Shown piece by piece: positions 10,380-14,094 of a stretch of DNA of 46,903 nt. Origin of the DNA: Candidatus Daviesbacteria bacterium RIFCSPHIGHO2_02_FULL_39_12 (GTDB lineage Bacteria; Patescibacteriota; Microgenomatia; Daviesbacterales; UBA10151); assembly GCA_001777055.1 (NCBI GenBank), contig MFCX01000036.1:1-46903 (forward strand), read 5' to 3'. The position numbers and the translations under genes are program-made. The notes under the pieces were generated by a model. It made no database searches. It worked only from the letters and a program-made list of their open reading frames with translations, and was not told the DNA's origin. How positions within the stretch are numbered: the stretch's first letter is position 1; every line of letters starts with the position of its first letter.

Positions 10380-11141
10380 ATGTTAAAACTCAAAACTGAA
10401 ACGCAAAACTTCAAACTTAAGATAATTTTTCTCGGAACACCTCAATTTGTACAACCTATTAAGCAGGAGTTAAAAAAACATTTTTTTCTAGTGAAATTGT
10501 TAAAAGAGGCTGACTTGGCGGTAGTTGCAGCTTATGGCAGGATTTTAACCAAAGAAGAATTAAATCTGCCAAAATATGGCAGTCTCAATGTCCACCCTTC
10601 TCTGCTGCCTAAATACCGCGGTCCCTCACCTATCCAGACAGCTATTTTAAACAACAACAAAACATCAGGAATTACCATAATAAAAATGGATGAAAAAGCA
10701 GATCACGGACCGATAATCTATCAAGAGAGTTTAGACCTTTCTGATAGTGATAATTGTGATATGTTGAGTAAAAAGATGTTTCTTCGCGCAAGTGAAATTT
10801 TACCCCAAGTAATTGAAAATTTTATATCAGGGAAAATCAAACTAGTTGAGCAAAATCATTCCAAAGCAACCTTTACTCAACACCTAACTAAGGAGGATGG
10901 TTACTTTACCATTAATAATCCTCCATCAGCTGAAATTTTGGATAGAATGATAAGGGCCTACTATCTTTGGCCGGGTGTATGGACTAAGTGGAGAGTCAAG
11001 AGTCTAGAGTCAAGAGTCAAGGAAAAAATAGTAAAATTCCTTCCAGGCAAGCAGATCCAAATGGAAGGGAAAAAACCCATTTCTTTTAATGATTTTTTAA
11101 ATGGCTACCCCGATTTTCCTCTAAAAAATCATCATTTATGA
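10380..11141 (+). CDS. fmt: Methionyl-tRNA formyltransferase (short form)
   Basis: IIFLGTP, NVHPSLLPKYRGPSPIQ. def-fmt synteny. N-terminal 13 aa and an internal WRVKSLESRVKEK segment are encoded by heptamer arrays. Confidence 0.85.
   Translation: MLKLKTETQNFKLKIIFLGTPQFVQPIKQELKKHFFLVKLLKEADLAVVAAYGRILTKEELNLPKYGSLNVHPSLLPKYRGPSPIQTAILNNNKTSGITIIKMDEKADHGPIIYQESLDLSDSDNCDMLSKKMFLRASEILPQVIENFISGKIKLVEQNHSKATFTQHLTKEDGYFTINNPPSAEILDRMIRAYYLWPGVWTKWRVKSLESRVKEKIVKFLPGKQIQMEGKKPISFNDFLNGYPDFPLKNHHL
10385..10419 (+). repeat. Heptamer-periodic array (aaacnnn x5) at the fmt 5' end
   Basis: aaaactc aaaactg aaacgca aaacttc aaactta, directly before the conserved KIIFLGTP start region. Confidence 0.8.
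10993..11020 (+). repeat. Heptamer-periodic array (gagtcaa family x4) in the fmt 3' part
   Basis: gagtcaa gagtcta gagtcaa gagtcaa. 10992-11008 is the exact reverse complement of 14142-14158. Confidence 0.85.
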
Positions 11142-11608
11142 TCTTCTCGCCATCTATGAATTCTGCTTTTAACAGCAGGCACTTCCACTCCAGTCATTGC
11201 TGCAATTTCAGGGGCAGTATACCCTGCTAATTTTAAAGCCATACACGGCTCTTCTCCTGCTTCTCTGATAGTCTCTGAGAGTATCGCAATAGTTTCAGCT
11301 GACGAAGAAGTTCCTAACTTTTCAGAAAAAAGGCTTTCCAAGCTTTGCAGCCGTCCTCCGCCTCGTTTTGCTGCAGAATTAGCTCTATAAAACATCCCTG
11401 CTGCATTTCGTACAACTTCATATAAAAAGGTCCGTTCGCTGGAACGTCCCTCAAACGGTTGCCCCCTCAATAATGCTTCTGCCGCATTTTGCATTACATC
11501 AGCTGCGTCTTGCGGATTTCCGGTAAACCACCTGGCCGCTGTTTCTATGAAATCTTTATGGTATTCAAACATTCCACCTACCTGCTTACTTCTAGCTTGT
11601 TCAACCAT
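11132..11608 (-). CDS. Sigma-70 family (ECF-like) RNA polymerase sigma factor
   Basis: Region-2-like DAADVMQNAAEALLRG and FLYEVVRNAAGMFYR. Region-4 HTH LKLAGYTAPEIAAMTGVEVPAVKSRIHRWRE. Visibly more GC-rich than flanking genes. Confidence 0.65.
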   Translation of the reverse strand: MVEQARSKQVGGMFEYHKDFIETAARWFTGNPQDAADVMQNAAEALLRGQPFEGRSSERTFLYEVVRNAAGMFYRANSAAKRGGGRLQSLESLFSEKLGTSSSAETIAILSETIREAGEEPCMALKLAGYTAPEIAAMTGVEVPAVKSRIHRWREDHK

Positions 11609-11617
11609 ATTTTTCCT

Positions 11618-11645
11618 TTAAAAAACCGCCTTTTTGAAGGCGGTT
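11618..11645 (-). terminator. Intrinsic terminator hairpin in the 5' leader of the sigma gene
   Basis: Minus strand reads aaccgcc-ttcaaaaa-ggcggtt followed by tttttt, ending ~10 nt before the RBS-like aaagga and the ATG at 11608. Confidence 0.55.
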
Positions 11646-11741
11646 CTAAATTTCATCCCTTTTAATTTCAGGATTAAATATTCAGAACCACCCCTCATAA
11701 ACAAGGTGGCGCTGACCCATAATTTTAGTTAAAAAGCATGA

Positions 11742-11771
11742 TTGCATATCTAAAATAGAAATTACTATAGT
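11742..11771 (+). promoter_or_regulatory. Sigma-70-type promoter for the PrkA-like gene, overlapping the divergent sigma-gene promoter
   Basis: TTGCAT (11742-11747), 18 nt, TATAGT (11766-11771). The -10 abuts the minus-strand -10 at 11759-11764. Confidence 0.4.
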
Positions 11772-11819
11772 ACTTCCTCTTTGTCAAGCGACAGTTGGAG
11801 TGTTAGAATAGCCTACGCT

Positions 11820-13877
11820 ATGGCAGCTTTTCCGGAAAGCAAAACCACTTTATATGATTTTCTGCTTACACAAATCCGGGAAGGAGAAACAAGACGTGCT
11901 GCTATTCCATTTGGCTCATATTTGCAAGATATAACATTGAGACTAACAAAAGCCCGCGCTGCAGCAGAGGTTTTAAGACAAGCTGATACATTAACCGATG
12001 AAGCCAGAATAACCCTTGAGAGAACCTCCTCATTCAGACCAATTTCTCATTCCGGAGATATTATGGTTCAGGCAGTCACCTCATATCCTCATTTTAAAAA
12101 TGAATCAGGACAAGAACAGTATGCCTTTTTTACCGGCCGGGGAGAAAGGAATATGGTATACGGAAACAGTTATCAGCTTGGCTTGATTGTAACTTTTATG
12201 GCTGACAGACTATCCAGAATCCCCGGGCTTGGCAAAGCGCTTTTTTTGTTTGCGCCAACTGGAGCCGGCAAATCAAAAATTGTTGATGCATTAAAAGCAG
12301 GATATGAGGATTATACAAGAGATGAAATGCAATATACAATTACAGGTTGTCCATATCAGGATGAACCCCTGCTTCTTTTACCCAAAGAGGCGAGAATATT
12401 ACTAGAAAAAGAACATGGAATCGTTCTTGAACAAGAACTCTGCAACTCATGCGAAACTAAACGCCATCAGGCAATTGGCAGCGAAAAAGGTATTCTAGAT
12501 GTAGAGATTGAACCAATTGAATTCTCGGCTGACCGAGGAACCGGTTTAATTACAATTAAGCCGGAAATGACAGAGAGTTTTGATCAACCGGAAGTACGGG
12601 ATGCTATACTGGATAGAATTCGCCGGGCCAATCGGGGTATATTGGAGATTGCTGAACTATTTCTTCACTCTCCCCCCTTTTTGAAAGCTCTGATGGGAAT
12701 TATTAGGGAACGAAGATTATCTTACAAAGGCATTGAATACCACCCTCAATTTGTTATTCTTACTCATGCAACCAATACTGATGTGACAAGGTTTATTCAG
12801 CTGGTTTCAGATAAAAAAATTGAAATAGATTCTGCAGCTTTCTTCCAACGATTAACAACAGTAAATCTACCCTATATTCTCTCTCTTTCCGATGAAGCAA
12901 CACTGTATAAAAACTCTTTTGCTCAAAGCGGCTATACCTTTCATATCTCCCCCCAAACCCTTGAGAAGGTAGGAATGGTGGCGCTGGCATCCCGTCTGAC
13001 TAGATCTGACATACCGGAAGTTGATATAGACACAAAAGTAGAAATATATAATGGCGGCAAAACAGACAAATTCACCCAGAAGGACAGAAGAGGAATCGAA
13101 GAGGAAGGCAGACAGAAAAAAGAAGGACTTAGCGGTATCTCCCCCGTACAGATGATTGAGCTTTTGACACAAGCCTTAAAGGAAAATCCCCGTTGCATTA
13201 ATCCTGCACAAACGCTAAATGCCTTGGAAATATACATTATTATGCAGCCGGCAGACTACCCGAGGAAATACGAACTTCTTACCACAATAAGAAATCAGCG
13301 GGCTAAATATGAGGCTTGGCTTGAGAAAACTGTAAAACAGGCATTTCGAGGCGATCATGAAAGCGCCTGTCAAAAAGAATTCCACTATTATCTTGAACAA
13401 GCAGAGGCATCTGCGGGAGGAATGAAAGTGTATGATCCAATTTCAAGAGAAAACGTTGAGCCTGATGAGGTATTCATGCGGCAGGTGGAGGTGATTATAG
13501 GAACCAGCGAATACGCTAAAAAAATATTCAGAAAAGAAATCTTAACTGATCCTGTTTTTACAAACCGGCAACGCGATTATGCAAAAAACCCCGTAAAATA
13601 TACAGAGCTGCCGAAATTCAAAGATGCTTTTGAAAGAAAGATAACCGGTATGTCTGAGCAGGATGTTGAAGATACGATTCTTGTACTTCTTCATACACCT
13701 GCCGAACAACAAATATCGCTTGATGTTTCAGGTCGAAAAAGGGCTGCTTTGCTTAACACAGCAAGGAAAAATATGATCGAACAGCAGGGATTTTGCCAGG
13801 ACTGCGCACCGCAACTCCTTCTGCAAACAGCAAAAGTTATCCATACCAGGACAGGCAAGGTTGTTACTGCCTTGTGA
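11820..13877 (+). CDS. PrkA-family AAA ATPase / putative serine protein kinase
   Basis: Walker A LFLFAPTGAGKSKIV, GCPYQDEPLLLLP (PrkA/YeaG-type CP..EPLHL motif), ANRGILEIAELFLHSPPFLKALMGIIRE. I prefer the ATG at 11820 because the TTG at 11781 lies inside the promoters. Confidence 0.7.
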   Translation: MAAFPESKTTLYDFLLTQIREGETRRAAIPFGSYLQDITLRLTKARAAAEVLRQADTLTDEARITLERTSSFRPISHSGDIMVQAVTSYPHFKNESGQEQYAFFTGRGERNMVYGNSYQLGLIVTFMADRLSRIPGLGKALFLFAPTGAGKSKIVDALKAGYEDYTRDEMQYTITGCPYQDEPLLLLPKEARILLEKEHGIVLEQELCNSCETKRHQAIGSEKGILDVEIEPIEFSADRGTGLITIKPEMTESFDQPEVRDAILDRIRRANRGILEIAELFLHSPPFLKALMGIIRERRLSYKGIEYHPQFVILTHATNTDVTRFIQLVSDKKIEIDSAAFFQRLTTVNLPYILSLSDEATLYKNSFAQSGYTFHISPQTLEKVGMVALASRLTRSDIPEVDIDTKVEIYNGGKTDKFTQKDRRGIEEEGRQKKEGLSGISPVQMIELLTQALKENPRCINPAQTLNALEIYIIMQPADYPRKYELLTTIRNQRAKYEAWLEKTVKQAFRGDHESACQKEFHYYLEQAEASAGGMKVYDPISRENVEPDEVFMRQVEVIIGTSEYAKKIFRKEILTDPVFTNRQRDYAKNPVKYTELPKFKDAFERKITGMSEQDVEDTILVLLHTPAEQQISLDVSGRKRAALLNTARKNMIEQQGFCQDCAPQLLLQTAKVIHTRTGKVVTAL

Positions 13878-14094
13878 GTTGTTCTTTTGGATAAGGCCGG
13901 GAAGTACTCTTTACAATTCTTAAACACTTTGTGCAATACTTTTTGCCTTTAAATAAATGCAAATTGGGTTTTTGCATTCTTTTGTGAATTGGAGCGCGCA
14001 AAGCCCAGACGCCTCCCGCACCGGATGAACCTTTTTTGTGCCTTGAATATGAAATAATATTTTTGCCTTTTCCACAGCGTAAACATGCTAACAT
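13864..14094 (-). CDS. rpmB: Ribosomal protein L28-like
   Basis: CLRCGKGKNIISYSRH..KRMQKPNLH..KKYCTKCLR resembles the L28 CxxCGK..SH..KR..PNL pattern. The 3' end overlaps the PrkA-like gene by 14 nt. Confidence 0.5.
   Translation of the reverse strand: MLACLRCGKGKNIISYSRHKKGSSGAGGVWALRAPIHKRMQKPNLHLFKGKKYCTKCLRIVKSTSRPYPKEQLTRQ

Follow-up and report, generated by a model that had tools for sequence, protein, structure and literature searches.

A sigma factor gene and a partner-less PrkA gene at an insertion hotspot between fmt and the bL28 gene of a Daviesbacteria genome

Introduction

In this article, I consider two adjacent genes of Candidatus Daviesbacteria bacterium RIFCSPHIGHO2_02_FULL_39_12, a member of the Candidate Phyla Radiation (CPR), one encoding a sigma factor that resembles those of the extracytoplasmic function (ECF) type and the other a protein of the PrkA family, and I will argue that they probably represent an old accessory insertion at a hotspot between fmt and the gene for ribosomal protein bL28, made up of two genes that are functionally separable. 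The window, by which I mean the whole stretch of DNA that was analysed, comprises 46,903 nucleotides (contig MFCX01000036.1 of assembly GCA_001777055.1, positions 1 to 46,903; contig C36 below) and belongs to a genome of 830 kb in 38 contigs with 38.7% G+C and an estimated completeness of 97.5%. A sequence-only reading of this DNA had seen in the two genes a GC-rich island of horizontal origin, bracketed by inverted repeats and pairing a sigma factor with a PrkA-type kinase across overlapping promoters, and its separate claims are taken up below where the evidence bears on them. The two genes are:

11132-11608, minus strand: ECF-like sigma-70 family gene, divergent, 158 amino acids (Sigma70_r2 match)
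11820-13877, plus strand: gene for a stand-alone PrkA-family AAA+ protein of 685 amino acids (Pfam, PDB and AlphaFold2 (AF2) model)

A hotspot for insertion between fmt and the bL28 gene

The pair is read as a hotspot insertion because the junction that houses it is empty, or carries unrelated cargo, in relatives. The backbone at this place, an 87-aa gene, def and fmt followed by the convergent bL28 gene and a gene for an M50 protease, is kept throughout the family and, beyond it, in other families of the class, and its members nearest to the pair are:

10380-11141, plus strand: fmt, methionyl-tRNA formyltransferase, backbone (Pfam Formyl_trans_N, 99 bits)
13864-14094, minus strand: rpmB, divergent bL28 of 76 amino acids, backbone (profile of orthologues)
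14177-14812, plus strand: M50-family membrane metalloprotease, backbone (Pfam Peptidase_M50; syntenic with bL28 across the family)

Orthologues of fmt were found in 37 of 37 relatives, and in the window this gene is preceded by def and, further upstream, the 87-aa gene; it shares its last 10 nt with the 3' end of the sigma gene, and at the other side of the pair the convergent bL28 and PrkA genes overlap by 14 nt. Only 20-260 nt separate fmt from the bL28 gene in genomes G002, G010, G011, G014, G018, G020, G042, G043 and G048, the junction is empty or otherwise filled in more than 20 relatives, and the cargo that it carries across relatives is unrelated and measures from 0.5 to at least 6.5 kb. 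It includes a 170-aa orphan in G012, a 464-aa orphan in G019, about 3 kb of orphans in both G006 and G007, and, in the only same-genus genome (G001; locus L010, which is G001:C24:1-9000), at least 6.5 kb holding the canonical cluster of YeaG/PrkA, YeaH and SpoVR together with a second PrkA paralogue. The two G001 paralogues stand in tandem beside fmt, one a loop-less protein of about 600 aa and the other the canonical protein of 656 aa, with YeaH and SpoVR following. The fmt|bL28 junction is therefore an insertion hotspot and the sigma and PrkA genes are one of its fillings, so that, of the horizontal island proposed earlier, the accessory insertion is upheld by comparative synteny, whereas the compositional and repeat evidence brought forward for it falls away, as described further below.

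One could also suppose that the sigma gene is an ancestral and very fast-evolving resident of this junction, and that only the PrkA gene was inserted later. The positional orthologue would then be a gene of G016, a genome of another genus, where a 175-aa protein matching Sigma70_r4 only (40.7 bits) is encoded at L064:1744-2271 in the same slot, on the minus strand and likewise overlapping the 3' end of fmt, and the 170-aa gene of G012 shares its position and orientation. However, BLASTP finds no similarity between the window sigma protein and the G016 protein, for which reason the latter was rejected as an orthologue, nor between the G016 and G012 proteins beyond the tail that the overlap with fmt forces upon them, and the junction is empty in many relatives, including other families of the class. 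I consider this history very unlikely.

Loss of the sigma gene in a sister lineage

The most informative comparison comes from a sister lineage, L015, which is represented by a single 3.5-kb Logan contig with about 80% DNA identity to the window and a PrkA protein about 79% identical to that of the window. On this contig, the end of fmt is followed by a sigma gene reduced to its last 44 codons. About 430 bp have been deleted there, comprising the other 114 sigma codons together with the start and the leader of that gene, and what comes next is the conserved PrkA promoter, PrkA itself as an intact gene, bL28 and M50, without an insertion sequence (IS). The ratio of nonsynonymous to synonymous divergence (dN/dS) of the PrkA gene between window and L015 is 0.20, that is, the gene is under purifying selection. 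Because L015 holds both a remnant of the sigma gene and a PrkA gene evolving at this ratio, the pair predates the split from L015, the sigma gene is dispensable and PrkA has been kept alone. The synonymous divergence itself is uneven across the locus (0.58 for PrkA, 0.87 for bL28 and 1.8 for M50), which could stem from a later exchange of PrkA between the lineages or from saturation noise.

These observations bear directly on the suggestion that the two genes form a self-contained module, in which the sigma factor drives prkA, or PrkA acts as kinase or protease to control the sigma factor in place of an anti-sigma factor, and in which overlapping promoters make expression of the two mutually exclusive. 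Such a module would be in keeping with the presence of the pair already in the common ancestor with L015, with the lack of an anti-sigma gene beside it and with the control of prkA/yeaG in model organisms, where it always lies under an alternative sigma factor, be it RpoS, sigma-E or sigma-N (PMC13684143, PMC3188799). On the other hand, L015 has deleted the sigma gene and maintained PrkA under purifying selection, and the complete pair occurs in one species only. The sigma protein was recovered unchanged from 16 contigs of several samples, which are all practically the same as the window, and a word-indexed homologue search returned nothing but the protein itself; neither the same family nor a selection of 7 relatives, which includes all PrkA bearers, gave a homologue, and elsewhere in the class identity does not exceed 32% among the best matches. 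Furthermore, the other contexts of this PrkA clade that were examined (L016, L017, L080, L081, L082, L086 and L087) contain no sigma gene, and no YeaH or SpoVR gene either, the genes beside PrkA being those for cupin, NUDIX, SpoU methylase, TGT, UDG, EamA and L31. In locus L073 the PrkA gene appears split, owing to Ns in the scaffold rather than to decay into a pseudogene. The proposed pairing thus fails in all 8 other clade contexts examined and survives in L015 only as a 44-codon remnant, and a self-contained module seems unlikely to me.

The sigma factor and its leader

That the small protein belongs to the sigma-70 family, as had been read from its sequence, is confirmed by profile search, since Sigma70_r2 is matched over residues 13-78 with 37.5 bits against a cut-off of 24. 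A full-length alignment, with 19-28% identity, is obtained with an ECF-like family that is common in its CPR class. Like group 4 (ECF) sigma factors, it is small, with matches to regions 2 and 4 only and without region 1.1 or region 3, and has no adjacent anti-sigma gene, there being no gene at all between it and either fmt or PrkA; unlike them, its scores for region 4 (Sigma70_r4_2, 23.5 bits against 25.7) and for the ECF model TIGR02937 (40.0 against 42.9) remain just below the cut-offs. An AF2 model based on a 9-sequence alignment reached a predicted local distance difference test (pLDDT) score of 53, too poor for a fold search.

A comparison suggests itself with the ECF43 type, group 4 sigma factors that lack an adjacent anti-sigma gene and are controlled by a neighbouring Ser/Thr kinase. 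Here, too, a putative 'kinase' gene adjoins the sigma gene; however, this neighbour encodes a PrkA-type AAA+ protein rather than a Hanks kinase, and the pairing is not conserved, the sigma gene having been lost in the sister lineage.

Upstream of its start codon the gene has a candidate leader:

11609-11752, minus strand: putative structured leader of the sigma gene (RNA fold)

These 144 nt fold at -45.3 kcal/mol (z = -4.4 against shuffles) and contain a terminator-like hairpin at 11624-11646 with a U-run, at a distance of about 10 nt from the ribosome-binding site, an arrangement that could serve as an attenuator. No Rfam family matches the leader; the sole hit, a microRNA with an E-value of 0.028, was set aside as chance. 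The gene would, in my reading, encode a fast-evolving and dispensable ECF-like factor expressed behind a long structured leader.

A PrkA protein without its usual partners

The large protein is a member of the PrkA family, as had been suggested, and both of its domains were matched by profile search: AAA_PrkA (PF08298) in two stretches with 105.6 bits against a cut-off of 25, the best of them covering positions 51-198 of the 358 of the profile, and the PrkA C-terminal domain (PF06798) with 126.7 bits against a cut-off of 25 over positions 2-253 of 255. In the PDB, residues 80-668 match entry 9xip, a 'Serine protein kinase', with an E-value of 3e-34. The AF2 model (pLDDT 83.9) has an AAA+ core, for which Foldseek returned generic AAA+ structures only (clamp loader, RuvB, the AAA+ domain of Lon, NtrX), and nothing was returned for the C-terminal domain from a library that does not include 9xip. 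The two motifs singled out earlier, APTGAGKS and GCPYQDEPLLLLP, are both there; the former is the Walker A motif (12252-12275, residues 145-152), in which G148, G150, K151 and S152 are invariant across an 8-sequence PrkA alignment. The protein also keeps the conserved glutamate of the NRGxxExxE motif and the cysteines C177, C208, C211, C659 and C662. A TTG at 11781 was considered as an alternative start and rejected, as the 79%-identical homologue in L015 starts at ATG and positions 11781-11809 coincide with a conserved promoter; the TTG is probably wrong and the ATG at 11820 right.

In its two domains, its length, its Walker A sequence of the form GxxGxGKS, the glutamate of NRGxxExxE and its conserved cysteines, the window protein resembles YeaG/PrkA of Escherichia coli, Bacillus subtilis and Rhizobium etli. 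In Escherichia coli, YeaG is required for the bulk proteolysis that starvation induces (PMC13684143), and PrkA of Bacillus subtilis shows ATPase activity and degrades casein in a manner dependent on Walker A, with K108 being essential (PMC9512850); by analogy, an ATP-driven role in starvation-linked protein turnover is likely for the window protein as well. However, prkA normally heads a prkA-yeaH-spoVR cluster that is controlled by an alternative sigma factor (PMC3188799), and the window genome has neither partner: profiles for YeaH (PF04285, DUF444) and SpoVR (PF04293) found nothing in the 97.5%-complete genome, although positive controls were matched, so that the earlier remark on a PrkA without these partners holds genome-wide. 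Moreover, the protein scores 72.6 bits, far below the 576-bit cut-off of the canonical equivalog NCBIfam NF011999, and both it and its clade have deleted a loop of about 18 residues (...SDPRAYRFDGELNVANRG...; ...SDPRAYRFDGE...) that the canonical PrkA proteins of G001, G010 and G060 retain.

The clade is a rare one. Of 61 relatives, 5 have a PrkA of some type, at about 30% identity, and in comparison with the PrkA proteins of its CPR relatives the window protein is only 25-29% identical in the alignment and at most 32% by local match. An exhaustive HMMER scan of 1.84 billion representative proteins yielded only P0004 (48%), P0006 and P0007 (39% each), P0009 (38%) and P0008 (35%) above the family background of about 30%, an indexed search added one homologue at 75-79% and two at 46-48%, and a search of metagenome and genome contigs with a 4-sequence alignment of the clade gave no related loci. 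The protease complement of the host is also of interest here, since no ClpP and no true Lon were detected genome-wide and FtsH (C1:7623-8183) is the only classical AAA+ protease found; a Lon_C match at C5:23271-24809 proved to be a 512-aa ComM/YifB-like protein. In my reading, the PrkA gene belongs to a rare clade without YeaH and SpoVR, encodes an AAA+ ATPase and would be read from a housekeeping-type extended -10 promoter of its own.

The control region between the two genes

The sigma and PrkA genes share a control region of 211 nt, in which three elements may be recognised:

11781-11809, plus strand: best-supported PrkA promoter, TTGTCA-17-TGtTAGAAT (10/12 match with TG, top of the scan)
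11787-11759, minus strand: candidate sigma promoter, TTGACA (11787-11782), 17-nt spacer, TAATTT (11764-11759), read from the sequence and below the scan threshold
11763-11772: perfect 10-bp palindrome TACTATAGTA between the divergent core promoters, containing TATAGT and conserved in L015

For PrkA, L015 has the same two hexamers and the same TG with a changed spacer, and 10 nt lie between the end of the -10 box and the ATG. The predicted transcription start (about 11815-11817) would lie 3-5 nt before the ATG, and the mRNA is thus predicted to be nearly leaderless; no Shine-Dalgarno motif precedes this ATG, and such motifs are found at only about 24% of crude open reading frame (ORF) starts across the genome. 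The palindrome is identical in L015, where it lies within TTACTATAGTAC, and was dismissed as a regulon motif on finding only 3 copies in the genome.

The sequence-only reading had placed two -10 boxes against each other, with the consequence that polymerase binding at one would exclude the other and the 5' ends of the transcripts would be complementary. The hexamers in question, TATAGT (11766-11771, plus strand) and TAATTT (11764-11759, minus strand), are indeed present, but both proposed hexamer pairs score below the scan threshold, and the region as a whole is no richer in promoter-like pairs than shuffles are (10 against 7.2 +/- 2.5). The only plausible -35 box for TATAGT, TTGCAT, lies 18 nt upstream in the window and 11 nt upstream in L015, and the promoter that is conserved for PrkA is the one at 11781-11809, so that abutting -10 boxes find no support. 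Most likely, judging from the sequence, divergent promoters stand back to back beside the conserved palindrome and have their -35 box in common (TTTGTCAAG), a geometry from which divergent, non-overlapping transcripts would follow.

How this affects the module discussed above is twofold. Adjacent and divergent genes, a shared region of this size, a conserved palindrome and overlapping -35 boxes are what one would look for in such a unit. However, the conserved PrkA promoter is predicted to be of the housekeeping type rather than the ECF type, which also distinguishes it from the alternative-sigma promoters of YeaG/PrkA elsewhere, and the best-supported transcripts do not overlap as mutually exclusive expression would have it.

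Base composition and heptamer arrays

The composition of the two genes, which had been called GC-rich and offered as a sign of horizontal acquisition, was ranked against 677 ORFs of the genome, or against length-matched ORFs in the case of codon usage. Total G+C is indeed raised, at 0.444 (97th percentile) for the sigma gene and 0.416 (81st) for the PrkA gene, but G+C at third codon positions (GC3) is ordinary, at 0.302 (26th percentile) and 0.339 (53rd), and the excess resides at first and second positions (GC1 0.55 for sigma and 0.52 for PrkA; GC2 0.48 and 0.39). The divergence of synonymous codon usage ranks at the 61st and 58th percentiles, respectively, and the tetranucleotide distance of the two genes at the 81st-92nd. 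The raised G+C stems from amino-acid composition and, because the two genes match the rest of the genome in silent-site G+C and codon usage, there is no compositional evidence of a recent foreign origin. In addition, G+C within the window spans 0.30 to 0.48, and the unusual A+T-richness of the neighbours def (6th percentile) and fmt (18th) makes the local contrast look larger than it is.

The second line of evidence that had been put forward was the inverted repeat, which consists of two arrays of heptamers; an IS element lies close by:

10992-11021, plus strand: left heptamer array AGAGTCA/AGAGTCT, 4.3 units, a 30-nt in-frame insert in fmt
14142-14173, plus strand: right heptamer array TCTAGAC/TCTTGAC, running into the M50 ATG
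14836-15816, minus strand: IS transposase (DDE_Tnp_1), outside the pair (Pfam, 100 bits)

Positions 10992-11008 are, as had been observed, the exact reverse complement of 14142-14158 (17/17) at a distance of 3.1 kb, and the match extends to 30 nt at 83%. Taken at face value, this could mark the ends of a recently acquired mobile cassette, the arrays being terminal inverted repeats or recombination sites: such an inverted match is far above shuffle expectation (6 matches of this pattern against 0.12), an IS element is found 0.7 kb away and the site is variable among relatives. However, the left arm encodes RVKSLESRVKE in a variable loop of fmt (...WTKWRVKSLESRVKEKIVKF in the window against ...WTKWSGKIVKF, without an insert, in the same-genus G001), and the last 120 nt of this vertically inherited gene would fall inside the cassette. 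L015 shares the insertion but has other heptamers at the site of the right arm (TTCAAAG TGCAAAG TTCAAAA at 2575-2605); the position of an array before the M50 ATG is conserved between window and L015, and the sequence of the unit turns over. Considering also the native GC3 and codon usage, the lack of a recombinase within 11009-14141 and the absence of the IS from L015, I regard a mobile cassette as the least probable of the histories discussed here, with hardly any weight of its own.

The arrays are in fact part of a phenomenon that extends over the whole genome, in which there are 65 tandem arrays of period 7 as opposed to no more than 8 for each of the periods 5, 6 and 8-11. Most of them are located within ORFs or immediately precede a start codon, and several unit families can be distinguished; those of the AGAGTC[AT] type occur at at least 8 loci, and the identical 17-mer has a third copy at C28:6438. 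With about 10 family members in 830 kb, about 0.35 pairs within 3.2 kb are expected by chance and, because the repeat is one of this dispersed family, it neither delimits nor dates the insertion. What is left of the bracketing repeat is thus the exact match, not a specific boundary, and the repeat would be a by-product of the genome-wide process that gives rise to heptamer arrays, unrelated to the arrival of the two genes. Period-7 arrays in the window are seen, for example, at 5062-5096, 7493-7531, 8149-8180, 8716-8772, 8907-8941, 10992-11021, 14142-14173 and 44590-44621, and arrays of the same family tend to cluster, with CTATACG only at 5062 and 7493 and the AGAGTC type at C28:6438 and 11350 and at C36:10992 and 14142. 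Heterocystous cyanobacteria possess short tandemly repeated repetitive (STRR) heptamer sequences, and the window genome is similar in having dispersed tandem 7-nt arrays in several unit families, a likeness of array pattern rather than of compared unit sequences; it differs in being a CPR genome and in that most of its arrays are in-frame within coding sequences or just before start codons.

The flanking genes

The flanking genes had been named fmt and rpmB, of which the former is assigned by Pfam and the latter required more work. The 76-aa protein alone is too divergent to be matched by the L28 models of Pfam or NCBIfam, but a profile built from its orthologues matches almost solely bL28 chains in the PDB (best E-value 5e-5) and 4 of 12 orthologues match PF00830 (best E-value 1.5e-11), and because of this evidence the name rpmB is acceptable. 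A genome-wide search for PF00830 gave no other match, leaving this gene as the only bL28 candidate. The candidate has two CxxC pairs and is recognisable only through the profile of its CPR orthologues.

Downstream of the M50 gene, the IS (14819-15849) is missing in L015, where the equivalents of positions 14813 and 15852 are joined directly. The sequence CTATAGTACCCCCAAATAGA is found near two contig ends (C1:12410-12445 and C35:15205-15240) and probably belongs to a repeated element that breaks the assembly.

Discussion

Considering these observations together, I favour an old two-gene accessory insertion at the fmt|bL28 hotspot, in which the two genes would act independently of each other in vivo and PrkA, by analogy with Escherichia coli YeaG/SpdA and Bacillus subtilis PrkA, would supply ATP-dependent protein turnover or remodelling during starvation without the help of YeaH and SpoVR.

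Several points weigh against this reading. PrkA proteins act only weakly as proteases in vitro, and no catalytic site has been defined for this activity. The transfer of function to this clade is uncertain, because its members are about 30% identical to the PrkA proteins that have been studied and the window protein scores 72.6 against 576 bits, and PrkA is not essential to the way of life of this lineage, as only 5 of 61 relatives have any. Both the promoter assignments and the leaderless start are predictions from sequence. L015 being a single contig, its sigma deletion might be an assembly artefact, which is unlikely. Finally, the divergent arrangement around a conserved palindrome fits co-regulation and may reflect some functional link between the two genes.

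A bolder idea is that the partner-less, loop-less PrkA clade constitutes a self-sufficient cytosolic AAA+ turnover machine in some ultra-small CPR cells that have lost both ClpP and Lon, and that here it is now, or was once, wired to a private ECF-like sigma factor through the shared control region, forming a minimal starvation-response unit. I offer this as a speculation with a small chance of being right.

As a sigma/kinase module, the locus is unsupported and hence of limited direct importance. What remains of interest is an insertion hotspot together with a rare PrkA clade that lacks its partners, in a CPR genome poor in proteases. The locus provides a clean case of such a hotspot where two genes converge in reduced genomes, and it shows that, in this genome, raised G+C can reflect the composition of proteins rather than a foreign origin. 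If the stand-alone clade is active, then PrkA-type ATPases can work without YeaH and SpoVR, which would narrow the search for the still-unknown mechanism of the starvation proteolysis that depends on YeaG/SpdA, and would suggest that CPR bacteria in which FtsH otherwise stands alone have an ATP-dependent turnover factor in the cytosol.

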